Positions 1,161 through 46,555 of a stretch of 64,000 nucleotides of DNA are shown here, in pieces. The stretch covers positions 15,181 through 79,180 of the IMG/VR virus record IMGVR_UViG_2870609773_000002. The stretch is one strand, 5' to 3'. The DNA comes from a virus. Lineage: Duplodnaviria; Caudoviricetes. Numbering within the stretch: the stretch's first letter is position 1; every line of letters starts with the position of its first letter. The notes below the pieces were generated by a model. That model saw only the letters and a program-made list of their open reading frames with translations, was not told the origin of the DNA and made no database searches. The translations under genes and the position numbers were made by a program.

Positions 1161-1725
1161 CCGCAAGCCGGCCCGGACGCCGAAGCCGAAGACGTACCAG
1201 ATGGGCGACCGCGTGCAGATGCGGCGCGCGTACGGCGTGGTCGGTCGAGTCGTGAAGGTGATCTACCGTAACAGGCCCGCGTTCTTCGGCTACCTCGTGG
1301 ACTTCGGCGACCACCAACGCGAGCTCGCCGGGACCGATGTCGTTGAGCCGCCTCGGCTGCTGCTGGAGGAGTACCGGAAGTGGCAGGACGACTTCCTCGG
1401 CTGGGAGTTCATCGCGCTCCTCGATGACGCGCGGCTCGCCCAGCTTCGCATGGAGTGGTGCGAGGTGAACAAGACGCTGGCCAGGCTGCGGCCCGACTGG
1501 ATCCCGCACCGGCGGGAGGGCGTGCAGCCGGTCCACCGGGTGACCGTCACGAAGACGACGGAGCGGCACAAGAACGTCTCGTCCAATGGGGCGTTCATCC
1601 GGACGATTGATCGGCACTTCTGGTGGCTGAAGTGCCCGTGCGGACTGCACGAGGTGGCCGAGTCGTCGCAGGAGGCCCAGCGGCGAAAAGGCGGACATGA
1701 CACCCCGCTCGGGGAGGTCGAGTGA
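1153..1725 (+). CDS. Hypothetical phage protein
   Basis: AGGAG RBS, GTG at 1153 overlapping the upstream stop; stop overlaps the next start (GTGA). Confidence 0.65.
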   Translation: MPNRKPARTPKPKTYQMGDRVQMRRAYGVVGRVVKVIYRNRPAFFGYLVDFGDHQRELAGTDVVEPPRLLLEEYRKWQDDFLGWEFIALLDDARLAQLRMEWCEVNKTLARLRPDWIPHRREGVQPVHRVTVTKTTERHKNVSSNGAFIRTIDRHFWWLKCPCGLHEVAESSQEAQRRKGGHDTPLGEVE

Positions 1726-2234
1726 GCCTGCGCATCGTCCCCGTGAGCTTCCGCGACGCCTGCGGTTTCGTCTCGATGTGGCACCGGCACCTTCAGCCGC
1801 CCCGCGGCCACAAGTTCAGCGTCGGCATCGCGGACAGCGCCGATCGTCTCATTGGCGTCGCGATCGTCGGCCGGCCGGTCGCGCGCCGCCTCGACGACGG
1901 CATGACGCTGGAGGTCATCAGGACTGCGACGGACGGGACACGCAACGCCAACTCGATGCTGTACGGCACGGCCTGGCGGGCGGCGAAGGCTCTCGGGTAT
2001 CGCCGTCTGATCACCTACAACCACACCCGCGTGTCCGGCCCGGTCTGCGGCGGCTCGTGTCTGCACTGGTCCTGCCGTTCTATACGCGCAGGTGAGAGCG
2101 GTGCCAGCCTGCGCGCGGCGGGCTGGCGCGTCATCGCGCAGCGTCGGCCCAAGCCCGGCTGGGACCGGCCCTCCCGTCCTCGGGCGGCCAACGGCAGCGA
2201 AGGGATCCCGCGCACGTTGTGGGAGGCGGTCTAG
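1722..2234 (+). CDS. XF1762/Mom-like GNAT-fold DNA-modification protein
   Basis: HRHxxPPRGHKFS, GVAIVGRPVAR, LEVxRxxTDG, SMLYG, GYRRLITY, ESGASLRAAGW motifs. Confidence 0.8.
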   Translation: MSLRIVPVSFRDACGFVSMWHRHLQPPRGHKFSVGIADSADRLIGVAIVGRPVARRLDDGMTLEVIRTATDGTRNANSMLYGTAWRAAKALGYRRLITYNHTRVSGPVCGGSCLHWSCRSIRAGESGASLRAAGWRVIAQRRPKPGWDRPSRPRAANGSEGIPRTLWEAV

Positions 2235-2331
2235 GGAAAGTTGCGCATCTGGCGCACTTGTTGTGTCATATGCGTCTGACGCGTGCCTTACCGTTCTGTA
2301 CCAACAGAACCGTCACACGGGGGAGTGCAGC

Positions 2332-2610
2332 GTGAACAAGGCAGACGTCATCGAGGAGTTCCGCCAGCGGACGGACGCGCCGTCGCGAGCCGCCGCAGCG
2401 CGGAGCGTCGAGGCGTTCATCGACATCATCGTCGGCGCCGTAGCCGCCGGTGGAGAAGTCCGCATCGGCCGGCTCGGCGTCTTCGACCGCAACTACCACA
2501 AGGCCACGGCCCGCCGGAACCCGAACACCAACGAGGTGATCGACGTGCCCGGCAAGTGGGTCATGCGGTTCCGGCCGGCCAAGGCCGTCAAGGCCGCCGT
2601 CAACAAGTAA
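2332..2610 (+). CDS. HU/IHF-family DNA-binding protein
   Basis: VNKADVI...GGEVRIGRLGVF...ARRNPNTNEVIDVP...FRPAKAVKAAV is the HU signature; GGGAG RBS. Confidence 0.9.
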   Translation: MNKADVIEEFRQRTDAPSRAAAARSVEAFIDIIVGAVAAGGEVRIGRLGVFDRNYHKATARRNPNTNEVIDVPGKWVMRFRPAKAVKAAVNK

Positions 2611-2621
2611 CACCACCAGCT

Positions 2622-2667
2622 CGTCGGCGGTCCGCTGCGGGGGCGCGGACCGCCGACGTTTCCATTT
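2622..2667 (+). terminator. Intrinsic terminator after HU gene
   Basis: 14-bp perfect stem CGTCGGCGGTCCGC / GCGGACCGCCGACG followed by TTTCCATTT. Confidence 0.7.
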
Positions 2668-2681
2668 GCGAAGGACACCAC

Positions 2682-3266
2682 ATGCGACGATCTGACATGG
2701 ACGCAGCCCTCGACGAGCTGTACGCCAAGGTGCCGCAGCCCGGCTGTAAGGGATTGTGCGTCGATAGCTGCGGCCCGGTAGGGATGAACCCGCGCGAGCA
2801 CCAGCGGATCCGCGAGCGGGGCGTGAACATCCCGCACCACCGGGACGCGCTCGCCCAGCTCGCCGAGACCGGCGATTACACCTGCCCGGCGTTGAAGGAC
2901 GGACAGTGCAGCGTCTACGACGTGCGGCCGATGTCCTGTCACCTGTGGGGCGCGGTCGAAACGATGCCTTGCCCGTACGGCTGCCGCCCGGAGGAGGGAC
3001 TACTACCGGACGCGGAAGGGCACGCGCTCCTCGCGCAGTCCCTTGACGTTGGCAAGCCGGACGCGCTCGACGCTGAGCAGTTGGGGCGTCTCAAGCAGCG
3101 GTTCGACGATCCGCAGTTCCGGCAGACCGTACGACAGTACGTGCAGGAGAACCGGCCTGCTGCGAACCCCGGACAGGCCATCGAGCACTGGCGGAGCAAG
3201 GCCGCCGGGTACGGCCTCAGCGTGCCCACTGGGCCGAAGAAGCGGCCGCGCCGCCGGCGCGGATAG
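2682..3266 (+). CDS. YkgJ-family cysteine-cluster (Fe-S/Zn) protein
   Basis: CKGLCVDSCG ... CPAL..GQCSVYDVRPMSCHLWG pattern; AAGGA RBS. Confidence 0.8.
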   Translation: MRRSDMDAALDELYAKVPQPGCKGLCVDSCGPVGMNPREHQRIRERGVNIPHHRDALAQLAETGDYTCPALKDGQCSVYDVRPMSCHLWGAVETMPCPYGCRPEEGLLPDAEGHALLAQSLDVGKPDALDAEQLGRLKQRFDDPQFRQTVRQYVQENRPAANPGQAIEHWRSKAAGYGLSVPTGPKKRPRRRRG

Positions 3267-3276
3267 GGTGCGAGGC

Positions 3277-4278
3277 TCACGCGGTGGGATCGGAAGCGAT
3301 CACCAGAACACCACGACGCCGGACGGCCGACCGGCCCCCGGGCAAGTTCACGGCCTTCTGCCCGTGCCAGTGCGTCACCAACCGGTCCAGGGCCCGCACG
3401 TGAGTGGCCGACAGCACGCCGGACGGGGAGCCCGCGGCGATGGCCGCTCGCCGCAGTACCCGTCGTCTTACCGCGTCGGGAAGCTTCTCAAGCTCGGCCA
3501 CGGCCAGCGTCACCGACTCGCCGAGGTCGCCTCGTACAGAGTGCTGGTAAGCCGAGTCGGCCCACTCGTCGAGCGCGTCGGCGTCTTCCCGCGCGAGCGC
3601 GGCGGTTCGAGCCAGCGCCTCGATCACCCCCGGCCCCAGCTCTTGCTCCAGGAGTGGAAGGATCTTGTGGCGCACTCGGACGCGTGTGTAGCGCGGGTCG
3701 GCGTTGTGTGGGTCGTCCCACAGGTCGAGGTTCTGCGCCCGGCAGGCGGCCACGGTGGTAGCCCTGGGAAGGTGCAGGAGGGGGCGCCGGTAGCGTCCCG
3801 TCGTGGCCGCCATGCCGGACAGGGACCGGGGTCCGCTGCCCCTGGCCAGCCCGAGAAGCACCGTTTCGGCCTGGTCGTCGCGGGTGTGTCCGAGCAGCAC
3901 GGCCTCTGCGCCATGCCGGTCGGCTGCCTCGCTGAGCGCGGCATATCGGGCCTCTCGTGCTGCCGCCTCTGGGCCGCCCTCCCCGCCCACGGTAACGGTG
4001 AGGACTTCCGAGGGGGTGAGGCCGAGGTCCGTGCCCAGGGCTGCCACGGTTTCCGCCCTCTGGCGCGAGCCCTCTTGGAGTTGGTGATCCACGGTCAGCA
4101 GGCCGGCGCGCAAGCGGAGGCGGGGGGCGACGAAGGCCAGTGCTGCGGCCAGGGCCAGCGAGTCGGCCCCGCCGCTGCATGCGGTGAGAATGAGCGCGTC
4201 CTTCTGGACGTCGGCCAGGGCTTCGCGGACGGCTCGGCGGACGTCGGCTACGGCTGGATGCGGACCCACATGTGTCAT
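3277..4278 (-). CDS. tilS: tRNA(Ile)-lysidine synthetase, actinobacterial host type, apparently intact (start may be GTG at 4269)
   Basis: PP-loop [42 protein letters not shown] motifs all present. Confidence 0.93.
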
Positions 4279-4299
4279 TGTCGTGGATCCGGGTGTCGA

Positions 4300-4833
4300 T
4301 CAGTGTGCCTGCGGCTGCTGGGCGTCGCTCTGCTCCAGGTCGAGCTCGTCCAGGTATGCCTCCATGGCGTCGTTGAGGACGGCCATGCCACCCATCTGCT
4401 CCTGGTGGCACGCGGCGACGAGCCGCGCTCGCGTGTTCCGCTTGAGCCGCACTACGGAGCCTGGTGCAACCGGACGGTCGCGGGGTGTGCCAGGCGGCGG
4501 CGGGTTGGGGTCACGGGGCACTTTGAGATTGGCCTTGTCGATGGGCTCGGGGAACACGGCCGGGATGGGCGGCTGCAGTGCGTCGCAGTAGGTGTTGATC
4601 GCCAGTTCCCACGCTTCCTGCGGGCCCATGCCCATGTCGTCGAGGGCGGTGGTGAGGCGGTCGTCGATGTCGCTGTACAGGTAGATCGTGGTGGGGACGA
4701 GGTTTGTCCAGCGCACTGCGCGGAGGCGACGTGGCCCACCTCGGCGGGTCGATTGCGGTTCCGCTGGCGGCTGTTGTCCGGCTGCGGAGTCCTCGGATGG
4801 GTTGAGCTGAGGTGGCTTCGGGGCGCGCGGCAT
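4300..4833 (-). CDS. Putative DNA-binding protein with two ribbon-helix-helix-like segments
   Basis: TTIYLYSDIDDRLTTAL...QEAWELAINTYC and SVVRLKRNTRARLVAAC...MAVLNDAMEAYL; 21 bp upstream of tilS, same strand. Confidence 0.55.
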   Translation of the reverse strand: MPRAPKPPQLNPSEDSAAGQQPPAEPQSTRRGGPRRLRAVRWTNLVPTTIYLYSDIDDRLTTALDDMGMGPQEAWELAINTYCDALQPPIPAVFPEPIDKANLKVPRDPNPPPPGTPRDRPVAPGSVVRLKRNTRARLVAACHQEQMGGMAVLNDAMEAYLDELDLEQSDAQQPQAH

Positions 4834-5072
4834 ATGGGGCTTCCTGTGTGGTGCGTGGCGTGGTTCAACGGTACGGCGTTTCTGCCGCCGTGTCGTCTTC
4901 GACGTGTACTGTAGCGGCCCGATTACTTTACGTCATTATTGGTTCCCTGATTGTTTATATCGATTCCCTGTATGTACTATCGAAGTGATCGCAGAGCTTC
5001 ACGATCAACCCTTCGCCACCTGGTGGCATGCCGCTACCAGCACCAACACCACAACCCGGAAGGGCTCACCGC

Positions 5073-5561
5073 ATGGAAACCCGGCTCTACACTCGCACCA
5101 ACCCCGACAACGGGCAGATCGAGATCAAGCACTACGAGATCACTCCCGATGCCCAGCCTGACGAGCCCGGTCCGGTCTTCATGACTCACTTCTGGGGCAC
5201 CGAAGCTCCGGCCGACTTCTTCACCGCCCACAGCGACTACGACGACGATGACGTGCTGTGCCTCATGGACCTCTACGGGCGCGAACTCGACGGACCGCTG
5301 GACGAATTCCTCGCGGCCACCTGGAAAGAGCACGACGCCGAAGGCTGGGTCCTCCTGCCTTCGCTCCCCGAGCCGCACGAGTACACCTGCGCAGGCTCGC
5401 CCGTCGCTGTCCTCCGCGCAGATGGCAGCAACCACATCGAGATCGCTGCCCTGCCCGGCAGTCGCACTGTCGAAGGCAGCCTCGAAAGGATCACTCTCGA
5501 AGAGGCCATGGGGCTCATCAACAGCCTCACCGACGCCATCGACGAGGAGAAATGGGCATGA
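5073..5561 (+). CDS. Hypothetical acidic protein
   Basis: GAAGGG RBS, ATG at 5073, stop overlaps next ATG. Confidence 0.65.
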   Translation: METRLYTRTNPDNGQIEIKHYEITPDAQPDEPGPVFMTHFWGTEAPADFFTAHSDYDDDDVLCLMDLYGRELDGPLDEFLAATWKEHDAEGWVLLPSLPEPHEYTCAGSPVAVLRADGSNHIEIAALPGSRTVEGSLERITLEEAMGLINSLTDAIDEEKWA

Positions 5562-6000: not shown

Positions 6001-6705
6001 ATGAAGAAGCTCGCCTTCCTCGACCTTGAGACGACCTCCCTCGACGAACGCCACGGCGACCTCTGGGAGATCGGCCTCATCATGCGAGACCTGCGCCAGC
6101 CGATCAGGACCGACGTCGAACACTGGTGGCAGGTCCGCCCGGACCTGACGCTCGCCGACCCGAAGGCGCTGGAGGTCGGCCGCTACTACGAGCGGTGCCG
6201 GGTCAGGCGCTCGTCCATCGGTGCCGGCCGGAAGCTCTCACCCGCCATCAACCTCGGTAGCCCGTGGATCCACGAGTACACCGGCGAGCCCCCGGCCGAG
6301 GGCGACTGGTACATGAGCGCCACCGCCGGAAGCATCGCCGCCACGGTCGCCCGAGAGCTGGACGGCGCCACGATCGTCGCCAACAATCCGACCCACGACC
6401 GCAAGTTCCTGGCGAAGTTCCTGCGGGTCCACGGGCAGCTCCTCACCGCCCACCATCGCATGATCGACATCCGCGCCCTGCTGATCGGCTACGTTGACGG
6501 CCGGCTGTCCGCCTACGACGGCAAGGTGGACGAGGCGTTCGAGGCTGAGGCCGTCCCGTACGTCGATGACTGGCTGGCCGGCTACATGGACAGCCCGTCC
6601 TGGGAGATCGTCGGCATCGCCCAGGACCCGGGTACGAAGCACACCGCGCTCGGCGACGCCCGCCTCGACCGCGACGTGTACGACGCCATCCGGAGCAGCC
6701 GATGA
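6001..6705 (+). CDS. DEDDh 3'-5' exonuclease (DnaQ-like)
   Basis: FLDLETT (ExoI), ANNPTHD (ExoII), HTALGDA (ExoIII). Confidence 0.88.
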   Translation: MKKLAFLDLETTSLDERHGDLWEIGLIMRDLRQPIRTDVEHWWQVRPDLTLADPKALEVGRYYERCRVRRSSIGAGRKLSPAINLGSPWIHEYTGEPPAEGDWYMSATAGSIAATVARELDGATIVANNPTHDRKFLAKFLRVHGQLLTAHHRMIDIRALLIGYVDGRLSAYDGKVDEAFEAEAVPYVDDWLAGYMDSPSWEIVGIAQDPGTKHTALGDARLDRDVYDAIRSSR

Positions 6706-11978: not shown

Positions 11979-12952
11979 GCATCACGATTCGCGAGGACGA
12001 GCGCGACGAGTACGACCCGAGCCACGCCGTACCGACCAGCGCGGGCCGCTACTACTGCGACCCCATGCTGGGCCCGGACGACCCGCACCGGATGAAGATC
12101 TCCGTCACCAACGCCATCGACCAGCACATGATCGAGGCGCTGGCCCCGGCCGCCGCGCGGGACACCGCGATCTGGCTGATGGACAACCTCCCCGACGCGA
12201 TCCGCGCGGCCGGCGACCCAGACGACATGGAAGCGTTCATCAAGCTGGCCAAGGCGCAGTACCGGGTCCAGTGGGACAAGAAGGCCGACCTCGGAAGCCG
12301 TGTCCATAACATCGGCGAAGCGATCAACCTCGGCAAGGCGTACATCCCCGACGAGGAAGCCGAACCGTTCGTCGAGTCCTACCGACAGTTCCTGGCCGAC
12401 TTCGGGGTGGACATCCGCCGCGACATCATGACGGCGGAGTGCACGGTGCTCAACCGCACGATCCCGTACGGCGGGACGAGCGACATCTGGGTCCGCTTGC
12501 AATTCCCCGGCCCGACGTCGCCGATCATGCCGAAGTTCAAGCCTCGCGCGGTTCCGGCCGCCCCGCTTCCGACGCCGTCCGGGCTGTGGCTCGTGGACAT
12601 CAAGACGAGCCTCACCAAGCCGGCCAGCGCCGTCTACGAGGACCACGTGATGCAGCTCGCCGCTCTGCGGCACGCGGAAGTCGCGCTCATCTGCCCGCCC
12701 GAGTGCAGGTACGGCGAGAGCGACAACCACGACGCCAGCCACGAGTTCCCCGTCCCGGAGTTCGTCGGCACGGCGATTCTCAACCTCCGCACGAACGGCT
12801 ACGGGTTCGTGCCGCTCCCGGCCGACCAGGACGCGTTCACCGCGTTCTGCGGGCTGCTCCCGCTCGCGCACTACGTCCACGGGCTCGAAATGCGCGGCTT
12901 CAAGCCCATCCAGCCCCCGAGCAAGACCACCACCAGGAAGGACGCCGCCTGA
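11975..12952 (+). CDS. PD-(D/E)XK exonuclease (RecE/RecB-like)
   Basis: SVTNAI, ADLGSRVH, AECTV, YGGTSDI, LVDIKTS, MQLAAL motifs. Confidence 0.85.
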   Translation: MSITIREDERDEYDPSHAVPTSAGRYYCDPMLGPDDPHRMKISVTNAIDQHMIEALAPAAARDTAIWLMDNLPDAIRAAGDPDDMEAFIKLAKAQYRVQWDKKADLGSRVHNIGEAINLGKAYIPDEEAEPFVESYRQFLADFGVDIRRDIMTAECTVLNRTIPYGGTSDIWVRLQFPGPTSPIMPKFKPRAVPAAPLPTPSGLWLVDIKTSLTKPASAVYEDHVMQLAALRHAEVALICPPECRYGESDNHDASHEFPVPEFVGTAILNLRTNGYGFVPLPADQDAFTAFCGLLPLAHYVHGLEMRGFKPIQPPSKTTTRKDAA

Positions 12953-14631
12953 TGCCCATCGACCCCTCCGTACTGCAGCGCCGCCACTGGCAGGACGGCC
13001 GGATCCGTCTCGGCATCAAGAAGATGAGCCGGAACGGCAAGGAGTACCCCAGCAAGATCGACACCTTCCGGTTCACGTCGCCGTCCGAGGACATGATCCG
13101 AGGCGTCGCCGAGAAGTACGGCGGCGAGGTCAAACCGTGGAAGTCGCCGCAGGGCCCGCAGTTCGAGGTCATCACCAACGCGCAGCGCATCCCCGTCATC
13201 GTCCCGCCCAACGGCCTGAGCCAGAACATGGAGCTCTGGGACGGCAAGCTCTGCATCCGTCGCTGCACCGGCATCGCGATGCAGGCCCCGTTCGTCGGCC
13301 CGTGCCTGTGTGGGGCGGACGTCGAGCTCAAGAAGCGGCCGTGCAAGCCGCACACCCGACTCGGTGTCTTTCTAAAGGAAGTGCCCAGCTTGGGCCTGTG
13401 GCGGCTCGACAGCAAGGGCGGCAACGCCGCGGCCGAGCTGCCCAACGCCGCCGAGTTCCTGGCCCACGCGGGGACGTACGTGGACGCCTGGCTGTACGTG
13501 GCCGAACGCACCGGCTCGTTCCTCGACCCGAAGGACAACGTGGTCAAGGCCACCACGTACATGGTGCCCGGCCTGACGATCGAAGGCATCGGCTTCGACG
13601 AGCTGATGTCGGGCGAAGTCGCCCGCCGCGCCGAGCTGGGCCGCGGCGGTGAGAGCCAGCGGGCGATCGAGGCCGCGCCCGCGACCGACTACCTCGCGAT
13701 GATCGAGGCGGCCCCAGACCGAGACGCGGTCGTGGCCATCTGGAGGACGTCCAAGCTCGACCCCGCTTGGCAAGGGCGGGGCGAGGAAGTGGAGGCGGCG
13801 GCCAAGGCACGCGTTGCGAAGTTCCCCCCGGAGCAGGGCAAGGGCGCACCGCAGGGCCAGTCCGCCCCGGAGGGCACGCAGCCCAACGAGCACACGCACG
13901 AGGACGCCCCTTCGGACACCCCGCCGCCGGGCGACCCCGAAGCGGATCGGATCCGGCAGCACATCATGACCGCGTGGTCCGGCACGACGAGCCAGCTCCA
14001 CACCGCGTTCCGCGACCGCACCAGCACCACCATGAAGGCCGCGACCCTGCAGCAGCTCCAAGAGTTCGCCGACCAGCTCGGCCAGCCCGCCGCAGGCGCC
14101 ATCGCGGACGAACCCCGCAAGGCGTCCGAGCGCGCCGAAGCGCTCCTCGAGGCCGCCCGCGCGCAGAACACCGCGGCGGCGGCCGACGACGACATCGTGG
14201 ACGGGGAGGTCGTCGAGGACGAGGAGCAGCCGAAGCCCACCGCCAAGGCGCTGCGCGACCTCGGAGTGTGGTTCGGCGAGGCCGGCGTCACCATCCACAC
14301 CGGCAAGGGTTCGGCCGCGAAGAACGACGAGGCGCGGTTCGCCTGGATTGTCGAGCACCTGGGTGTCGATGTGACCTCGACGAAGGACCTCAGCGCCGAG
14401 CGGGTGGACACCGGGGTCAAGCTGCTCATGCAGCAGGCCGCCGCCCGCCGGAAGGACCTGCAGCAGCGCATCGTCAACGTCTGGTCCGACCTGGACGGCA
14501 ACAACCAGCAGCTCTCCGCCGCGTTCGAGCAGCACATGGAGAAGCCGGTCGGCGAGGCCACCAACGCCGACCTCGCCGCGTTCCTGCAGAAGCTCAGCAA
14601 CAGCGAGGTCACCCCTGGCGGTGGTCAGTGA
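12952..14631 (+). CDS. Gp3-like (recombination-directionality-factor-like) protein with long C-terminal extension
   Basis: GRIRLG, PSKIDTFRFTS, CKPHTRL, GLWRLDSKG-NAAAELP; coupled to the exonuclease. Confidence 0.7.
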   Translation: MPIDPSVLQRRHWQDGRIRLGIKKMSRNGKEYPSKIDTFRFTSPSEDMIRGVAEKYGGEVKPWKSPQGPQFEVITNAQRIPVIVPPNGLSQNMELWDGKLCIRRCTGIAMQAPFVGPCLCGADVELKKRPCKPHTRLGVFLKEVPSLGLWRLDSKGGNAAAELPNAAEFLAHAGTYVDAWLYVAERTGSFLDPKDNVVKATTYMVPGLTIEGIGFDELMSGEVARRAELGRGGESQRAIEAAPATDYLAMIEAAPDRDAVVAIWRTSKLDPAWQGRGEEVEAAAKARVAKFPPEQGKGAPQGQSAPEGTQPNEHTHEDAPSDTPPPGDPEADRIRQHIMTAWSGTTSQLHTAFRDRTSTTMKAATLQQLQEFADQLGQPAAGAIADEPRKASERAEALLEAARAQNTAAAADDDIVDGEVVEDEEQPKPTAKALRDLGVWFGEAGVTIHTGKGSAAKNDEARFAWIVEHLGVDVTSTKDLSAERVDTGVKLLMQQAAARRKDLQQRIVNVWSDLDGNNQQLSAAFEQHMEKPVGEATNADLAAFLQKLSNSEVTPGGGQ

Positions 14632-15108: not shown

Positions 15109-15363
15109 ATGAAGTCCATCACCGTCGAGTACGACGACGTCACCCCCGCCACGATCGAGCACCGGCTGGCCGCCGAGGAGACCGTCCTCGCGATGGGCAG
15201 CCGCCGCTACCCCGCCGCCCTGAACGACCGGGCCGCCCTGCTGGAGGCCCTCCAGATCGCTGACCGGCTGTCCGCCGCCGTCGTCGGCTGGCGCGGCGAC
15301 ATCGTGGCCGCGCTGCAGAAGCTCGACAACGACCAGTACGCCCGCGAGAACGCCACCACCTGA
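15109..15363 (+). CDS. Hypothetical protein
   Basis: AAGGAG RBS, ATG at 15109. Confidence 0.7.
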   Translation: MKSITVEYDDVTPATIEHRLAAEETVLAMGSRRYPAALNDRAALLEALQIADRLSAAVVGWRGDIVAALQKLDNDQYARENATT

Positions 15364-30808: not shown

Positions 30809-30880
30809 TGCGCCGCGCCAGCGATAAGGCCGGGGATGCCGTCGCCGGCTTCCCGCTGCCGTTCGGCGCAGGGGACGATC

Positions 30881-31849
30881 GTGAACGCTGAGCTGATCGT
30901 CGTCCGGAGCGAAGACGTCGCGCTGCCGCTGGACCTGCCGCCGATCATTCTCGACCTGACCCGGGCGTGGCTGTGGTCGTTCGACTCGAAGAACACGCGG
31001 GACACGTACGAGCGGTACATTCGGCGATGGTTCGAGTTCTGCAACGAGACCGGCCTCGATCCGCTGGAGGCCCGCAAGCCGCACGGCGACGTGTTCTCCC
31101 GCTGGTTCCAGGAGACGGCCCGCCGACCACCGAAGCCGAAGACAGTGGCATTAGTCCTGTCCACGGTGTCGTCCTGGTACGAGTACCTGCACGAGACCGA
31201 AGCCCTCGACGCCAACCGGTTCAAGAAGACGCGACGACCGAAGATCCCCCGCAAGCACTCCGAGACGGTCGCGCTCACCAAGGGCGAGGCGCGGGACCTC
31301 CTCCGGGCGGCCGACGCCGACCATGGCCGGGAACGGCTGCGCACCGCGGCGCTGCTCCGGCTGCTGCTGCAGACCGGCGTCCGCATCTCCGAGGCGGTGA
31401 ACGCGCAGATCGACGACCTCGGGTTCGCCCGTGGGTATCGGACGCTGCGCATCACGGTGAAGGGCGGCGACACGATTACCCGGCGGCTGCCGGTGGAGGC
31501 GACGCACGCGCTGGATGTCTACCTCGCTGAGCGGGCGCACCGCGAAGGGGTCGAGCTGCAGGACCTGCGGGGCCCGCTATTCGCGACCTCGACGGGCCAG
31601 AGCTGGAGCAGGTCGAAGGCGTTCGAGCTGGTGCGGCGCATTGCCGCCCAGGCGGGCATCACGTCGAAGGTGGGGCCGCACTCCCTGCGGCACACCTACG
31701 CATCGCTGGCGCAGGAGGCCGGCGTCGCGATGCGGCAGATCCAGCTCGACCTCAACCACGCCGACGTGTCCACGACGGAGATCTACTTGCACAGCCGGGA
31801 CCGGCTGGAGAAGGACGCCTCTCAGGTGGTGGCGTCGCTGCTGGAGTAG
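30881..31849 (+). CDS. Tyrosine recombinase, XerC/D-type (no arm-binding domain seen)
   Basis: SAM-like N-terminus; catalytic R (TGVRISE), K (VKGG), HSLRH, H (LNHAD), Y (TTEIY). Confidence 0.93.
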   Translation: MNAELIVVRSEDVALPLDLPPIILDLTRAWLWSFDSKNTRDTYERYIRRWFEFCNETGLDPLEARKPHGDVFSRWFQETARRPPKPKTVALVLSTVSSWYEYLHETEALDANRFKKTRRPKIPRKHSETVALTKGEARDLLRAADADHGRERLRTAALLRLLLQTGVRISEAVNAQIDDLGFARGYRTLRITVKGGDTITRRLPVEATHALDVYLAERAHREGVELQDLRGPLFATSTGQSWSRSKAFELVRRIAAQAGITSKVGPHSLRHTYASLAQEAGVAMRQIQLDLNHADVSTTEIYLHSRDRLEKDASQVVASLLE

Positions 31850-33554: not shown

Positions 33555-34184
33555 GTGCCCGCTATCGTGTCGCAGACCTATCGAATGGTCTCGGTCGCCG
33601 ACCTCGAACCGCACCCCGACAACCCTCACCAGGGCGACGTGGACGTGATCGCCGAGTCGATCAAGAAGAACGGCTTCTACGGCACGGTCCTGGTCCAGAA
33701 GTCGCAGATGCGGATCATCGCTGGTGAGCACCGCTGGCGCGGCGCGAAGGCCAACCACTTGCGGCAGGTGCCGGCCCTGATCATCGACGTTGACGACGAC
33801 ACCGCCACCCGGATCATGCTCGCCGACAACCGGACCGCCGAGTTCGGCGCGTACGACGACCACGCCCTTGCCGACCTGCTGCACGGCCTGGACGACCTCG
33901 ACGGCACCGGCTGGACGGAGCAGGACCTCGACGACCTGGCCGACGCCATCGCCGCCGACAACGCGGTAGCCCTCGGCCCCGAACGCGCTCCGGTCCCGGG
34001 CGGTGGCCGCGCCGACCAGGCCGGCGCCGACGACGAAGAAGAGCTGCCGGAACCGGGCGACGCTGAGACGCATACGCGGCCCGTTGTCTGGGGCGTCGTG
34101 GTCACCTGCGACAGCGAGGCCGAGCAGGTGCAGCTCCTCAACCAGCTCACGGGCCAGGGCTGGAACGTCCGCGCCCTGATGTAG
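33555..34184 (+). CDS. ParB/Srx N-terminal-domain protein (terminase-associated type)
   Basis: LEPHPDNPH, SIKKNGF, IIAGEHRWRGA, LADNRTAE. Confidence 0.88.
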   Translation: MPAIVSQTYRMVSVADLEPHPDNPHQGDVDVIAESIKKNGFYGTVLVQKSQMRIIAGEHRWRGAKANHLRQVPALIIDVDDDTATRIMLADNRTAEFGAYDDHALADLLHGLDDLDGTGWTEQDLDDLADAIAADNAVALGPERAPVPGGGRADQAGADDEEELPEPGDAETHTRPVVWGVVVTCDSEAEQVQLLNQLTGQGWNVRALM

Positions 34185-35702: not shown

Positions 35703-36188
35703 ATGGTCGTCAGCAAGGCCCGTCAGGTCGAGATCTCCCAGCGGCGCTACCAGGCGGTCCAGATGCGGATCGCTGGAGTGTCGCCCACGGTCATCGCCGA
35801 GCGGCTGGGCTACTCGGGCGCGGCCTCGGTGTCGAAGGACATCGACAGGGCGCTGCAGAAGGCCGCCAAGCAGGAGCAGATGGCGAGCGAGCAGCTTCTC
35901 AAGCTGGAGATCGACCGGCTCGACCGCATCATGGCCTCGCTGTGGCCGAAGGTCGTCAAGGGCGAGGTTCAGGCCTGCGAGACGGCGCTGAAGTGCATCA
36001 ACCGGCGGTCGGCTCTGCTGGGCCTGGACCTGATCAACAGGAACGGCATCGCGGACGGCGACATGGCGTCTCTGCTGGGCAACCTGCTGCTCCAGATCCA
36101 GCAACGGCACACCATCCCCGACCCCGACACGGACACCATCCTCGAGGCCGAGGTGATCGGTGAGATCGAGTCGGGGGACGGCCTGTGA
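35703..36188 (+). CDS. terS: Terminase small subunit
   Basis: HTH (IAERLGY) plus EIDRLD...LW...GE.QA....RRSALLGLD; coupled to TerL. Confidence 0.8.
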   Translation: MVVSKARQVEISQRRYQAVQMRIAGVSPTVIAERLGYSGAASVSKDIDRALQKAAKQEQMASEQLLKLEIDRLDRIMASLWPKVVKGEVQACETALKCINRRSALLGLDLINRNGIADGDMASLLGNLLLQIQQRHTIPDPDTDTILEAEVIGEIESGDGL

Positions 36189-37471
36189 GCACGCCGGCGC
36201 CGACGCCGCTGAACCTGTCGCCCAAGCAGCTCCGGTCGATCGGCGAGTCCACAGCTCGCCTGAACATCTGGTCGGGCGCGATCCGGTCGGGCAAGACGAT
36301 CGCCTCGCTGCTGCGGTGGGTTATGTACGTCGCGAACGCGCCGCGCGGGGGCTCGTTGGTGATCGTGGGCAAGACATCGGACACGATCGCCCGGAACGTC
36401 TTTGACGTGCTGCAAGACCCGGCGATCACCGGCCCGATCGCGCGGCGGATCATCTACACCCGTGGCGCTCCCACGGCGAACATCCTCGGGCGACGCATTG
36501 AGATCATCTCGTCGAACGACGCCCGGTCGGAGAACCGGCTGCGAGGCATGACCTGTGCTGGTGCTTACGTCGATGAGATCACGCTGATCGAGCGGGAGTT
36601 CTGGGACCAGCTCTTGGCCCGGCTCAGCGTCACGGGCGCCAAACTGTTCGGGACCACGAATCCCGATGCTCCGAACCACTGGTTGAAGCGCCAGTTCCTT
36701 GACCGCAAGTACGAGCTTGACCTGCGGCATTGGCACTTCAGGTTGGACGACAACACCGCGTTGGACCCGGCGTACGTCAAGGCGCTCAAGGCTGAGTACA
36801 CCGGGCTCTGGTTCAAGAGATTCATCTTGGGCCAGTGGGTCATGGCCGAGGGCGCGATCTACGACATGTTCGACCCGGACCGGCACGTCGTGGACATCCT
36901 GCCGCCCATGGAGCGATGGCTGGCCTGCGGCGTTGACTATGGCACCGTCAATCCGTTCGATGCCATCCTCATCGGCGTATCCACTCCGGACGACACTGGC
37001 CAGCGGCGCATCTATCTCGCCAGCGAGTTCCGCTGGGACTCCCGCGCCGAGCGGAAGCAACTCACCGACGCCGAGTACAGCCTGAAGCTCGGGGCGTGGC
37101 TGGACAACATCCCCGACACCTACGGCCCCGGCACCCGCGGGGTACGGCCGCAGTGGGTCGTGGTGGATCCATCCGCCGCGTCGTTCATCACGCAACTCCA
37201 GCGCGACGGCTTCACCCCGACCATGGGCGACAACTCCGTCAACGACGGCATCCGCACCGTCAGCAATCTGCTCGGCGCTGACCACCTGCGGATCCACCGC
37301 TCGGTGTCCGGGTTCCTCGACGAGGTCGGCTCGTACGCGTGGGACGACAAGAAGGCCGAGAAAGGCGACGACGTGCCCGTGAAGGTGGATGACCACGCGT
37401 TGGACGCTGTCCGGTACGGCCTGCACACCACGCAAGCGGCCTGGCTGCCGCTGCTGCAGCCGGTCTACTGA
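36185..37471 (+). CDS. terL: Terminase large subunit (PBSX-like)
   Basis: GAIRSGKT, RLRG...YVDE, TTNP...HWLK, DYG, VDPSA, DDHALDAVRY. Confidence 0.95.
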   Translation: MSTPAPTPLNLSPKQLRSIGESTARLNIWSGAIRSGKTIASLLRWVMYVANAPRGGSLVIVGKTSDTIARNVFDVLQDPAITGPIARRIIYTRGAPTANILGRRIEIISSNDARSENRLRGMTCAGAYVDEITLIEREFWDQLLARLSVTGAKLFGTTNPDAPNHWLKRQFLDRKYELDLRHWHFRLDDNTALDPAYVKALKAEYTGLWFKRFILGQWVMAEGAIYDMFDPDRHVVDILPPMERWLACGVDYGTVNPFDAILIGVSTPDDTGQRRIYLASEFRWDSRAERKQLTDAEYSLKLGAWLDNIPDTYGPGTRGVRPQWVVVDPSAASFITQLQRDGFTPTMGDNSVNDGIRTVSNLLGADHLRIHRSVSGFLDEVGSYAWDDKKAEKGDDVPVKVDDHALDAVRYGLHTTQAAWLPLLQPVY

Positions 37472-41010: not shown

Positions 41011-42585
41011 ATGCCGCTTCCCGAGCGTAATCAGGAGTGGCCGCCGCCAGCGATCCGACAGGAGATGCGGCTCTACGACACTCACGGCGCCTGGTACGCC
41101 GGCGACCCGGACAAGCTGGCGCAGGTGTACGGCGGCAACCGGGCAGCGCCGATGGTGGGGATGGACCCGAAGGGCTGGGACCGGCCGATCAGCCGCATGG
41201 GCGGATACCTCGGGCGTGCAGTCCGCTACTTCTGGGGAACGCCCACACCGGCCGCGCAGTCACGAGCGACGAAGCTTCACATCCCGCTCGCCGCCGATAT
41301 CGCCGCCACCAGCGCCGACCTGCTGTTCAGCGAGCCACCGACACTCAAGCTGAAGGGCAAGAAGGGGCAGCAGCGGCTCGACAGCGTGCTGCACGAGGCC
41401 GGCGTCTACGGCAGCCTCCTGGAGGCCGCAGAGCTGGCCGCCGCATACGGGGGCGTCTACCTGCGGGTCGGCTGGGACACGACGATGGCTGACCACCCGG
41501 TCGTGGACGCGTTGCCGCCGGACGCCGCCGTGCCCGAGTTCCACAACGGCCGGCTGAAGGCGGTGACGTTCTGGCGGGTCGTCTACGAGGACGACCGGTC
41601 GGGCGAGGTGTGGCGGCACCTGGAGAAGCACGAGAAGGGCCGCGTCTTCCATGGCTTGTACCTGGGCGATGAGGATCACCTGGGCAGGCAGATGCCGTTG
41701 GAGGATCACCCGGCGACCGCCGAGTTCGCCGAGCTGGTGGACGAGGATGGCGGGTTCGACAGCGGGTTCGATCGTGGCCTGCTGGTTGAGTACATCCCGA
41801 ACATGCGCCCGCACAGGATGATCCGGGGTACGGCGGTCGGCCGCAGTGACTATGCGGGCGTTGAGCCGTTGCTGGACGCGTTGGATGAGACGTGGACGTC
41901 TTGGATGCGGGACCTGCGGCTCGGTAAGGCGAGGATCATCGTCCCGGAGATCTACCTGACGACGGCCGGGCGCGGCCAGGCAGCGTCGTGGGATCCGGAT
42001 CGGGAGATCTACAGTCCGTTGGGCGGCATGCTGCCGTCGCCGCAGAACCCCGGCAGCATGATCACCCTGAGCCAGTTCAAGATCCGGGTGCAAGAGCATG
42101 CGGAGACGTCGAAGCACCTGGTGGAGCAGATCGTTCGCGGTGCCGGGTATGCGCTGCAGTCGTTCGCTGAGGGTGGCAATGGCCAGGCCAAGACGGCGAC
42201 CGAGATCCACATGGAGAAGCACCGGTCGTACTCGACGCGCGGCCGGAAAATCGGCTACTGGACACCGCGACTCGCGTGGCTGTCGGAGGCGATGCTGGCC
42301 GTCGATCACGCGGTGTTCGGGACGAAGGTCGTGGCTGAGCGGGCGACCGTGGAATGGCCGGACGGCGTCATGCCCGACCCCGAGAGCATGGGCCGCACGC
42401 TGGACATGCTGAACCGGGCGCAAGCCGTCAGCCTGGACACGAAGATCCGTTGGGTTCACCCCGACTGGGACGACGTCCAGGTCCAAGCTGAGAAGGAGCG
42501 GCTGCGCGACGAGCTCGGGCTGAACGTGCCGGACCCGGCAGCCCTGGGCGAGACGTGGATCCCTGACGCGAGCGGCGACGACTGA
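41011..42585 (+). CDS. Portal protein (SPP1 gp6-like)
   Basis: HIPLAADIA..SADLLFSE, YIPN, GRSDY, LDALDE..TSWMRD, TATEI; position in head module. Confidence 0.9.
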   Translation: MPLPERNQEWPPPAIRQEMRLYDTHGAWYAGDPDKLAQVYGGNRAAPMVGMDPKGWDRPISRMGGYLGRAVRYFWGTPTPAAQSRATKLHIPLAADIAATSADLLFSEPPTLKLKGKKGQQRLDSVLHEAGVYGSLLEAAELAAAYGGVYLRVGWDTTMADHPVVDALPPDAAVPEFHNGRLKAVTFWRVVYEDDRSGEVWRHLEKHEKGRVFHGLYLGDEDHLGRQMPLEDHPATAEFAELVDEDGGFDSGFDRGLLVEYIPNMRPHRMIRGTAVGRSDYAGVEPLLDALDETWTSWMRDLRLGKARIIVPEIYLTTAGRGQAASWDPDREIYSPLGGMLPSPQNPGSMITLSQFKIRVQEHAETSKHLVEQIVRGAGYALQSFAEGGNGQAKTATEIHMEKHRSYSTRGRKIGYWTPRLAWLSEAMLAVDHAVFGTKVVAERATVEWPDGVMPDPESMGRTLDMLNRAQAVSLDTKIRWVHPDWDDVQVQAEKERLRDELGLNVPDPAALGETWIPDASGDD

Positions 42586-44561
42586 TGACCATCACTCCAG
42601 CCGCTGCCATCGAGGAGGGTCTGGAGCAGGCGCGCAAGGTCGCCGCCATGTACGCCGACGCGGAGACGGCGCTGCTGGAGCGCATCGCCGCGCGGGTCGG
42701 CAAGGACCTTGACAACGACGATGGCGACGACTGGGCGGACAAGCGGCTCTCCGAGGTGACGCAGCTCCGGAAGGAAGCCGAAGCGATCGTCCGCCGGTTG
42801 CAGGCCGCGTCGAGAGCTGCCGCTGAGGCGGCGGTGCTGGAAACGTGGGCCGAAGGCATGGACGCCGCGGTGCGCGGTGCCGTGTTGCAGGTCCACGACC
42901 GGAAGGTCCGGAAGCGGCTGGCCAAGGTGCTGGAGGACGCGAAGAACCTCGGCGCGAGCCGGGGCATCAACGCCGGCCAGGGCGTTGCCGAGCTGGCCGC
43001 GCAGACCGTTCGTATGGTCACGTCGGTCCATGAGGGCGCGCTGCGGGCGGTGGACGACATCTTCCGCAACGTCGTCGCCGAGACTGCCAGCCGAGCGCTG
43101 ATCGGCGCGGAGACTCGGCGGGAGGCGGCGCAGCGTGCGCTCGACCGGTTCACGGCCGAGGGCATCAAGGGGTTCACTGACTCGGCCAACCCGCCCCGGA
43201 CCTGGAGCATGGCCAGCTACGCCGAGATGGCTATGCGGACGGCCGTCGCTCGGGCGGCGGTGGACGGTCATCTGTCCACGCTGCGCGAGGCCGGGATCAA
43301 CCTGGTCAGCGTGTCGCGGCTGCCGTACACGTGCGACCGATGCGCCCGCTGGGAGGGTGAGGTACTGGCCCTGTCCGGATCGGCGGGCACGCGCGTGGAG
43401 GAGAACCCAGCCACGGGCGTGCAGGTGTTCGTGCAGGTCGCGGGGACGGTCGCGGAGGCCCGGTTGGCGGGCCTGCTGCACCCGAACTGCGGGCACAGCC
43501 TGAACGCCTACCTGCCTGGAGTGTCGAGGCCGGCGCCCGTTGTGCAGTCGAAGACCACCTACAAGGAGTCGCAGCGGCAGCGCTACCTGGAGCGGAAGGT
43601 CCGCGAGACCAAGCGGCGCGCGGCGGTTGCGCTCGACGACGACGCCCGCGCGAAGGCGGATGCGAAGACGGCCGCCTACCAGCAGCAGCTCAAGGAGCTG
43701 ACGAAGGCGACAGGGCTGCGACGCAGAACCGATCGGGAGAGGGCCGACGCCCCGTCTGCGGACCTGGATGAGCTGACCGACCGGGAACTCGCCGACCTGG
43801 CCAGCAAGTTCAGCCACGACGAGCAGGCGCTGGCCCGGCTTGAGCAGGAGATGAGCCGCCGCGACGAGGCCGACGCGGCGGCTGCGCGGGCAGCCGGCCC
43901 GGCTGCGCAGGACGACCCGATCGCCGCGTTGTCGGAGATCAACGACCTGGGCGACCTGACCGACGACCACGTGTTGGCGCTGATGGAGCGGTACCGCGAC
44001 GACGAGCAGGGCATGGCCCGCGCGCTCGACGAGCTGGACCGCATCGAGAGGCAGACTCGCGCGCGTGAGAACTGGTCGTGGAACTGGCGCGAGGAGGAGA
44101 CCGACGCCGACCGGGCGATTTCGGACCTCATCGCGTCGGGCCGCTACTCCTACATGGACGCGTACGCCGAGGTGCACGGGCTGGACCCGGCCGAGCTGGA
44201 CCGTCAGGAGCGGCGGGCCCTGCTGGAGGCGGACCGCCGGCCGGGCGAGGACATCGATCAGACGGTGCGCCGCCTGTACGCCGAATGGCTCGACCAGGCG
44301 TACGAGCGGGCCGAGGCCGACACGAACGGCTTCCTGCTGAACGCCGAAGGGCGTGCGGCCGGGATCAACGAGCGGTCGCTGTTCTCCGGGCCGGCCGCGC
44401 GCGCCAGGAAGTACGCCAGCGAGGAGCTGCTGCGCTGGTGGGCGAACAACGCGCGGCTCACCCTCACAGAGTTCCGCGCGCAGTGGCTCGGGCGGGAGTC
44501 CGACCGGCGGGCGGCCGAGCAGATCCGAGCGGGCGGCGCCGGGAGGGAGTTCGGAGTATGA
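42585..44561 (+). CDS. Minor capsid (MuF-like/min_cap2) protein with C-terminal extension
   Basis: R.W.MASYAEMA.RT, CD.C..WEG.VL, GLLHPNCGH; about 270-aa extension. Confidence 0.85.
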   Translation: MTITPAAAIEEGLEQARKVAAMYADAETALLERIAARVGKDLDNDDGDDWADKRLSEVTQLRKEAEAIVRRLQAASRAAAEAAVLETWAEGMDAAVRGAVLQVHDRKVRKRLAKVLEDAKNLGASRGINAGQGVAELAAQTVRMVTSVHEGALRAVDDIFRNVVAETASRALIGAETRREAAQRALDRFTAEGIKGFTDSANPPRTWSMASYAEMAMRTAVARAAVDGHLSTLREAGINLVSVSRLPYTCDRCARWEGEVLALSGSAGTRVEENPATGVQVFVQVAGTVAEARLAGLLHPNCGHSLNAYLPGVSRPAPVVQSKTTYKESQRQRYLERKVRETKRRAAVALDDDARAKADAKTAAYQQQLKELTKATGLRRRTDRERADAPSADLDELTDRELADLASKFSHDEQALARLEQEMSRRDEADAAAARAAGPAAQDDPIAALSEINDLGDLTDDHVLALMERYRDDEQGMARALDELDRIERQTRARENWSWNWREEETDADRAISDLIASGRYSYMDAYAEVHGLDPAELDRQERRALLEADRRPGEDIDQTVRRLYAEWLDQAYERAEADTNGFLLNAEGRAAGINERSLFSGPAARARKYASEELLRWWANNARLTLTEFRAQWLGRESDRRAAEQIRAGGAGREFGV

Positions 44562-45616: not shown

Positions 45617-46555
45617 ATGGCTAACACTTTCCTGACCCCGAGCATTATCGCCAAGGCGGCGCTGGCCACGCTGTACGAGACCTGCGTCATGGCCCAGCTT
45701 GTCCACCGCGATTATGAGCAGGAGTTCGTCTCCCGCGTGGGCGACACGATCTCCGTGCGGAAGCCCGCCGTGTTCCAGGCGAACGAGTTCGACCGGGCGA
45801 CCGGCATCCAGATCCAGAACGCGTCCGAGGGCAGCGTGCCGATCACGCTGAACCACTTCGCCGACGTGAGCTTCAGCGTCACCGCCGAGGAGCTGACGCT
45901 GGAGATCGAGGACTTCGGCACGCAGCTCCTCAACCCCGCGATGGAGGCGATCTCGCAGAAGATCGACAGGGACATTCTGAGCCTCAGGAACGACATCGTG
46001 CAGCGCGTGGGCGTCCCGGGCACGACTCCCACGGGCCTCACCGGCGAGGTGATCCACCCGTACGACGACCCGAAGACGGCGATCGACGCCAGGCGCGTGC
46101 TCAACCAGCGGAACGTCCCGGCGGCGGATAGGCATCTGGTGATCGGCCCGGAGATCGAGGCGCTCTGGCTGTCGGATCCGCTGTTCCACCAGGCCGACGT
46201 CAGGGGCGACACGGACGGTCTCCGCGAGGCTTCGCTGGGCAGGCGAGTCTTCGGTCACGATGCCTACCAGACCCAGAACATCGACGCGCCCACGGGCACG
46301 CCGACGACTGGCCAGCCGAACACCGAGATCGGAGTGGCTTTCCATAGGACCGCTTTCGCGTTGGTGACTAGGCCCTTGGTCCTTCCGCAGGGCGCGGCCA
46401 ACGCCGCCGTGGAGAGCTACAAGGGCTTCGGCGTCCGCGTGGTGATGGACTACGACATCTCGAAGAAGCAGGACATCGTGTCGGTGGACTGCCTCTACGG
46501 CGTCAAGACTCTCGACGCCAACAGGGCTGTGCTGATCCACGGGGTCGCGGCGTGA
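45617..46555 (+). CDS. Major capsid protein (P22 coat-like)
   Basis: MANTFLTPSII, GDTISVRKP, AFHRTAFALVTRPL, D.LYGVK.LD. Confidence 0.92.
   Translation: MANTFLTPSIIAKAALATLYETCVMAQLVHRDYEQEFVSRVGDTISVRKPAVFQANEFDRATGIQIQNASEGSVPITLNHFADVSFSVTAEELTLEIEDFGTQLLNPAMEAISQKIDRDILSLRNDIVQRVGVPGTTPTGLTGEVIHPYDDPKTAIDARRVLNQRNVPAADRHLVIGPEIEALWLSDPLFHQADVRGDTDGLREASLGRRVFGHDAYQTQNIDAPTGTPTTGQPNTEIGVAFHRTAFALVTRPLVLPQGAANAAVESYKGFGVRVVMDYDISKKQDIVSVDCLYGVKTLDANRAVLIHGVAA

Follow-up and report, generated by a model that had tools for sequence, protein, structure and literature searches.

An intact tilS gene of Nonomuraea descent in a family of temperate siphophages

The DNA analysed here is a 64,000-nucleotide (nt) stretch of a tailed-phage record (IMGVR_UViG_2870609773_000002, positions 15,181 to 79,180), referred to below as the window. 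It carries on its minus strand a complete gene for TilS, the tRNA(Ile2) lysidine synthetase. The window corresponds to bases 15318–79317 of contig C2 (96,733 bp, 67.9% GC; window GC 67.7%), which accompanies the 12.78-Mb chromosome C1 (71.5% GC) of a genome, G000, of the soil actinomycete Nonomuraea. The genus is assigned from the names of public protein records and from the best match in a plasmid collection. The tilS gene follows a conserved phage gene, P0002, whose product resembles ribbon-helix-helix (RHH) proteins. It converges with a gene on the opposite strand, and an AT-rich intergenic region separates P0002 from a divergent rightward operon (Table 1). Comparison with the host chromosome and with related prophages shows what looks like a working lysidine synthetase gene, taken from a Nonomuraea chromosome by a family of ~97-kb temperate siphophages.

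The encoded protein is matched in Pfam by the PP-loop model PF01171 (5e-38) and, over residues 258–325, by PF09179 (2.5e-11), the TilS substrate-binding domain or C-terminal domain 1 (CTD1). Its score for the NCBIfam model TIGR02432 is 148.6 bits, above the cut-off of 93.6, and the PP-loop motif SGGADS occupies residues 35–40. The TilS entries matched in the PDB are 3A2K, 1NI5 and 1WY5; the alignment with the Geobacillus structure 3A2K extends over residues 25–321 of the phage protein and residues 16–320 of the structure. CTD2, which reads the acceptor stem in the long form of E. coli and Geobacillus, is not present in the phage protein, whose chain stops at residue 333. The full-length model NF007942 gives 110 bits against a cut-off of 606, and the host's own TilS likewise falls below it. 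Judged by these matches, both the phage and the host enzyme are of the short form. At each of the 111 columns without variation among 42 cellular TilS sequences the phage protein has the invariant residue, and it does so at 144 of the 150 columns invariant within the genus.

The host chromosome C1 has a tilS of its own at 12,748,090–12,749,085, with hpt (TIGR01203, 215 bits) and then ftsH (881 bits) behind it. Given this separate, canonical locus, the gene in the window is neither the host's only tilS nor the product of a misassembly. The phage and chromosomal proteins are 81% identical without gaps, and the similarity at the DNA level (78.7%) is confined to the open reading frame (ORF). When seven chromosomal loci were compared, the homology ran from ~8 nt before the ATG up to the stop codon, and no fragment of hpt or of the chromosomal upstream gene was found to have been brought into the phage. 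We computed a maximum-likelihood tree of 43 TilS sequences, representing 37 Nonomuraea species, five outgroups and the phage copy. The phage protein was placed inside a well-supported (98/88) Nonomuraea clade of five sequences that includes the host's own copy, to which it is weakly sister (91/78). As the phage copy is nested within the Nonomuraea clade, the gene was transferred from the host genus to the phage.

Chromosomal TilS proteins of Nonomuraea and other Actinomycetota are like the phage protein in having 333 residues, the same domain order and all of the invariant residues, at 79–82% identity. Unlike them, the phage copy lies behind the phage RHH-like gene, has no adjacent hpt or ftsH and shows an excess of substitutions at residues 219–252 and in CTD1. 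An earlier note on this DNA had read the gene as a complete host-type TilS inside a phage, not flanked by hpt and ftsH; both points hold, and the second chromosomal copy and the place among host tilS genes that it proposed to check are as described above.

The phage-type gene is not confined to one isolate. Among 110 Nonomuraea species genomes, two intact tilS copies were seen only in G000 and in N. gerenzanensis (G075); double matches in two other genomes were split hits in a single gene. Three unpublished genomes (G037, G042 and G048) were counted in one tally only, and none of the conclusions depends on them. The phage-type protein is 97–98% identical in N. gerenzanensis, where it is encoded by an integrated prophage colinear with C2, and in N. 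rubra, whose protein belongs to the 90%-identity cluster of the phage TilS (98% identical). Both species also have their own tilS; that of N. rubra is of the host type and falls in the host cluster. Pairwise Nei-Gojobori estimates of the ratio of non-synonymous to synonymous substitution rates (dN/dS) between the phage gene and seven cellular orthologues were 0.14–0.21, and those among the orthologues themselves 0.13–0.25. Of the changes between the copies in C2 and in the G075 phage, 18 are synonymous and 12 non-synonymous (omega 0.26). Within the catalytic domain the phage protein has one change in the 135 columns that are at least 90% conserved in the genus, the cellular mean being 1.7. These comparisons show that purifying selection has preserved the gene in three or more phage isolates.

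For a recent chance capture, now decaying as a functionless passenger, speak the rarity of the gene (2 of 110 genomes), its longer end branch in the TilS tree (0.23 for the phage copy vs 0.10 for the host's) and its lower GC content at third codon positions (GC3; 0.81 vs 0.89 in the host gene). We find it hardly credible, however, as three diverged copies all have an uninterrupted frame, dN/dS stays at 0.14–0.26 and no invariant residue has been lost. The synonymous divergence (dS) from any host copy is ~0.7–1.1, which points to a long residence in the phage.

The carrier itself has the genes of a phage. C2 encodes two large tail proteins in addition to the virion, packaging and integration genes of Table 1. 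Its end (96,650–96,733) and its start (1–35) read continuously through ~90 nt, which duplicate the 3′-terminal sequence of an acyl-CoA-dehydrogenase-like gene at ~7,753,925–7,754,014 of C1 and occur once in that chromosome. Thus, C2 is circular and non-integrated, with an attP, and the attB is unoccupied in the assembly. A colinear relative is integrated in G075 (C1:3,513,047–3,610,030), with 84–97% nt identity in most blocks. From the virion and packaging genes, the integrase, the attP and the integrated relative, we conclude that the carrier is a temperate tailed phage of the siphophage type with a genome of ~97 kb, and the phage context assumed in the earlier note is genuine. Genes on the phages and the host were called with a simple GC3-based caller.

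Table 1. Position of tilS, its surroundings and the main phage genes (window coordinates, unless C2 is given).
Feature	Coordinates	Strand	Description
Tyrosine integrase	C2:138-1397		
Convergent downstream gene	2700..3266	+	Weak CxxCxxCC-domain match, below Pfam threshold; stop 10 nt from tilS stop
Phage-borne tilS	3277..4278	-	333 aa, short actinobacterial type: PP-loop N-domain and CTD1, without CTD2
Spacer, RHH-like gene stop to tilS start	4279..4299	-	21 nt; identical in G075 prophage
P0002, conserved phage gene	4300..4833	-	177 aa; basic disordered N-terminus and two putative strand-helix-helix units
AT-rich divergent intergenic region	4834..5027	.	194 bp, conserved blocks; 18-nt direct repeat 4937-4954 / 4958-4975
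First gene of divergent rightward operon	5028..5561	+	
Exonuclease-like gene	6001-6705		Follows 5028..5561 in rightward operon
Second Xer-like recombinase	30836-31849		
ParB_N	33555-34184		
Terminase large subunit (TerL)	36185-37471		
Portal	41011-42585		
Head morphogenesis protein	42585-44561		
Major capsid	45617-46555		
Tape measure	50803-53175		

The insertion site could be defined from relatives that lack the gene. Three further genomes (G132, G028 and G008) contain prophages whose colinearity with C2 begins at the integrase and extends through the last gene; they have 66–71 of the 92 called genes in common with C2, but no tilS. In G132 a spacer of 13 nt lies between the convergent P0002 homologue and CxxC-like gene, and the backbone sequence TGAGCC that follows the stop codon of the P0002 homologue recurs at the tilS stop in C2. 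In the tilS-less relatives, the gene matching 2700..3266 converges directly on the RHH-like gene. These colinear relatives indicate that tilS is an ORF-precise, lineage-specific insertion in a convergent gap, in the same orientation as P0002. In this it is like phage morons and other auxiliary genes, which are host-type genes inserted as separate units in a conserved backbone. Downstream of tilS, the other strand (window 1722–3266) encodes a Mom-like DNA-modification protein (phrog_1384), an HU-like protein (PF00216) and the protein with the weak CxxCxxCC-domain match.

P0002 gave no match in Pfam or NCBIfam (E <= 0.1), PHROG or PADLOC, and thus no RHH-clan model was matched. An hhalign comparison matched its first half to its second (76% probability, E 2.4e-5, 44 columns), and the conserved pattern consists of a strand, a helix, a glycine turn and a helix, twice over. 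Its neighbours in the ESM Atlas, by features and by structure, all belong to the RHH clan (RHH_1, Arc, ParG, CopG and TraY); the structure neighbours CopG, TraY and ParG have template modelling (TM) scores of 0.46–0.58. The AlphaFold2 (AF2) model is poor (predicted local distance difference test, pLDDT, 50), with helices at 49–67, 71–86, 134–144 and 150–171. TraY has two tandem strand-helix-helix units in a single chain, as P0002 may have. Unlike TraY, CopG and Arc, P0002 has no RHH match in Pfam; its N-terminus is long and basic, and its linker is rich in proline. A tandem RHH-like protein is therefore a reasonable lead rather than a demonstrated assignment.

Of the 109 other Nonomuraea genomes, 39 have a P0002 homologue, and nearly all of these lack tilS. 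Homologues also occur in Streptosporangium, Microbispora and Thermocatellispora; every one bears the annotation hypothetical, and 19 were gathered in Streptosporangiaceae. The divergent intergenic region in front of P0002 (4834–5027) has a GC content of 53%, falling to 45% at 4900–5000, as compared with 67.7% for the window. It contains one sigma-70-like -35/-10 match (4963 to 4935, minus strand) and is conserved in relatives both with and without tilS. As P0002 and the promoter region are present in tilS-less relatives, they are older than the tilS insertion. The earlier note had called P0002 an RHH-like regulator in front of tilS with an AT-rich divergent promoter. The AT-rich region exists and is conserved, and the internal repeat and the look-alikes in the Atlas agree with an RHH-like protein; a regulator specific to tilS is ruled out by the distribution of P0002, a resident phage gene that mostly occurs without tilS. 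A scan of the 21-nt spacer between the two genes found no promoter-like or terminator-like match, from which we infer that tilS is co-transcribed with P0002.

C2 has no tRNA gene. Four tRNA(CAT) genes but no tRNA-Ile(TAT) are encoded by the host, in which AUA is therefore readable only through TilS. The phage has 15 ATA codons in ~23,000 codons, distributed over ~12 genes with two in the tape measure gene. The five positions listed in the earlier note (2082, 7214, 19668, 52309 and 52732) are all ATA, though at the background rate. Per 1000 codons we counted 0.65 ATA in C2, 0.51 in the G075 phage, 0.86, 0.77 and 0.53 in the tilS-less relatives and 0.54 in the host, the last from 3 Mb sampled; the gene caller demands high GC3, which under-samples low-GC3 genes equally across all of these sets. 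ATA makes up 1.7% of the isoleucine codons in the phage and 1.6% in the host.

If AUA use by the phage exceeded the capacity of the host, an extra TilS could raise decoding and so compensate for codon usage. The in-frame ATA codons, of which the tape measure gene has two, and the complete dependence of AUA on TilS in the host speak for this. However, the ATA rates of the tilS-bearing phages are not raised over those of the tilS-less relatives or the host, and no extra tRNA-Ile2 is supplied. On the ATA counts in five phages and the host we set this explanation aside as very unlikely. The same counts go against the boosted AUA decoding suggested in the earlier note, as ATA is no commoner in phages with tilS than in relatives without it or in the host.

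The phage and chromosomal genes differ in their 3′-terminal parts. Codon 326, eight codons before the stop, is ATA in 32 of 37 Nonomuraea chromosomal tilS genes (in the host G000 at L002:2389–2391). The phage gene has GTG at this codon and no ATA across its length. The last ~13 codons of chromosomal tilS are nearly invariant at third positions (TAT322, GGC323 and GCC328 in 37/37, AGT330 in 28/37), and a GATANT hexamer is found inside this block, ~32 nt before the hpt start. The conserved block, like the ATA, is missing from the phage gene. ATA326 may make the synthesis of TilS dependent on its own product, or it may be part of an internal hpt promoter or RNA element. As predicted from its codons, phage TilS can be translated without AUA decoding and most host TilS cannot.

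We propose that tilS is transcribed together with P0002 from the conserved AT-rich divergent region, and that its product would convert C34 of the host tRNA-Ile2(CAU) to lysidine, the phage itself bringing no tRNA. The phage would then control a supply of TilS that is independent of host tilS expression, which is the weakest step of the proposal. With it, AUA codons would still be decoded and unmodified tRNA-Ile2 would be prevented from reading AUG. The supply would matter for the ~15 AUA codons in ~12 phage genes and would not be a compensation for an AUA-rich genome. Taken as a whole, a captured and selected TilS that provides a phage-controlled, host-independent supply is the best explanation of these data, and we put its chance of being correct at about even.

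Several observations weigh against this explanation. Most relatives of the phage are without tilS, so any benefit must be conditional. The missing ATA may reflect the mere loss of a DNA-level element tied to hpt. A strong Shine-Dalgarno sequence is absent before the phage tilS, as it is before the host gene. Finally, residues 211–333 of the phage protein have 10 changes in 75 conserved columns, compared with a cellular mean of 1.1. Outside the catalytic domain the excess in conserved columns is thus ~nine-fold over cellular TilS, and these changes could indicate an altered specificity rather than plain TilS function.

The replacement of NCALS by HSVRG at residues 246–250 (window 3529–3543) and several changes in CTD1 (288–333) are common to all three phage copies. 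Catalysis appears conserved, and the linker and CTD1 have evolved in a lineage-specific manner. A new substrate or a moonlighting role, be it on another RNA, in the neighbouring DNA-modification module or in the regulation of ftsH, would be in accordance with the clustering of the shared substitutions in residues 219–252 and CTD1, and a Mom-like DNA-modification gene does adjoin tilS. The TilS-HprT pair of B. subtilis reportedly regulates ftsH. The jumbo phage MIJ3 has homologues of both tilS and ftsH (PMC6892783). We nevertheless judge a changed function to be very improbable. The catalytic domain and the invariant residues are untouched, part of the C-terminal change is accounted for by release from a nucleotide-level constraint specific to the chromosomal locus, and tilS came to adjoin the modification genes by inserting in a convergent gap that is also there in its absence.

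A host-independent supply might serve growth in the lytic cycle, rescue during a shut-off or against a defence, or conversion of the lysogen. Phage TilS might restore lysidine on new tRNA-Ile2 when the host, a prophage, a toxin or a shut-off by the phage lowers TilS or the function of unmodified tRNA-Ile2. That selection holds tilS although the host has its own copy would fit with such counter-defence or rescue, as would the lack of AUA in the phage copy, whose translation could continue if AUA decoding broke down. Phage counter-measures against tRNA-targeting defences are known (PMC10264068). The tRNA repair of T4 (Pnkp/Rnl1) is a tRNA-directed counter-defence that acts, as TilS would, on the host translation machinery; TilS, however, modifies and does not repair, and has no known cognate defence. 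No known defence aimed at tRNA-Ile2 or TilS was found in the literature, and PADLOC gave no match for the tilS cassette or its neighbours. Moreover, a tRNA lost to cleavage cannot be made good by TilS, and there is no tRNA gene on the phage to do so. We consider this role unlikely.

The control of gene expression by bldA and TTA codons in Streptomyces is the model for a reading as lysogenic conversion, in which tilS on a prophage would raise the TilS dose and thereby alter how the ~16% of host genes with an AUA codon are translated, to the benefit of the lysogen. In the host AUA is about as rare as TTA (0.54 and 0.39 per 1000 codons, respectively), the phage is temperate, and the two-gene unit is antisense to the flanking operons, as is often the case with morons. 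As tilS is carried in only 2 of 110 species genomes, we regard this, too, as rather unlikely. A bolder variant, which we think quite doubtful, is that AUA decoding is a regulated bottleneck in Nonomuraea. An AUA-free phage TilS under an RHH-controlled promoter would then override the self-dependent loop of the host and switch on AUA-containing genes of the phage or the host. If true, this would be a phage-borne counterpart of bldA/TTA control.

Lysidine synthetases have been noted in other viruses. The putative TilS of the jumbo Pseudomonas phages MIJ3 and PA5oct was reported as new to phages, distant from the host enzyme and of unknown role (PMC6892783), and lysidine synthases were noted in giant viruses (PMC13191261). 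These cases are similar to the present one in that a virus encodes a putative TilS and the host has its own tilS. They differ in that those viruses are large and lytic, with many tRNA or translation genes and a TilS distant from that of the host, whereas the carrier described here is temperate and tRNA-less, with a copy 81% identical to that of its host genus. Ten contigs in IMG/VR (L092–L101) have TilS-family genes of 310–320 aa (TIGR02432 162–182 bits, 30–33% identity), with no tRNA gene within 8 kb of them. One that was examined has a T4-like make-up and encodes topoisomerase II and a gp5-like lysozyme; another viral contig is 359 kb. With their lytic T4-like backbones and low GC, these contigs represent independent acquisition, unlike the temperate high-GC carrier.

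INPHARED yielded just 14 weak TilS matches, all at <=41% identity and mostly in unannotated or fragmentary records. No close relatives were found among cultured phages, the phage TilS matches no PHROG family, and a single-protein scan of IMG/VR returned no match. Virus-borne TilS is therefore sparse but already known, and the gene described here is a new, independently acquired case in a temperate actinophage, set apart by its close host origin and by the tilS-less sister phages at hand. The viral lysidine synthetases of jumbo phages and giant viruses have been listed but never explained. The present case is unusually clean, as it offers the donor lineage, the exact insertion site, sisters without tilS and three selected copies, and as codon compensation can be dismissed from sequence alone. 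The system could be used to test why a phage duplicates an essential tRNA-modification enzyme of its host, and whether, in high-GC actinomycetes, the reading of AUA is a limiting or a regulated step.

With respect to the wider relationships of the carrier, its portal is 45–47% identical to the portals of the ~82-kb Streptomyces phages Galactica and Hiyaa. Three Streptomyces records submitted as plasmids (NZ_CP046906.1, NZ_CP109440.1 and NZ_CP107843.1; 88–93 kb) have portals that are 41–42% identical to it and carry no tilS; they are candidate phage-plasmids of a related type. The integrases of the colinear ~97-kb prophages in G075, G132, G028 and G008 are just 41–43% identical to that of C2. 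The integrase module has been exchanged within the phage family, which suggests that different attachment sites are used. A 730-aa protein encoded at window 12439–14631 has a Gp3-like recombination-directionality-factor domain (PF18897, 1.9e-32).

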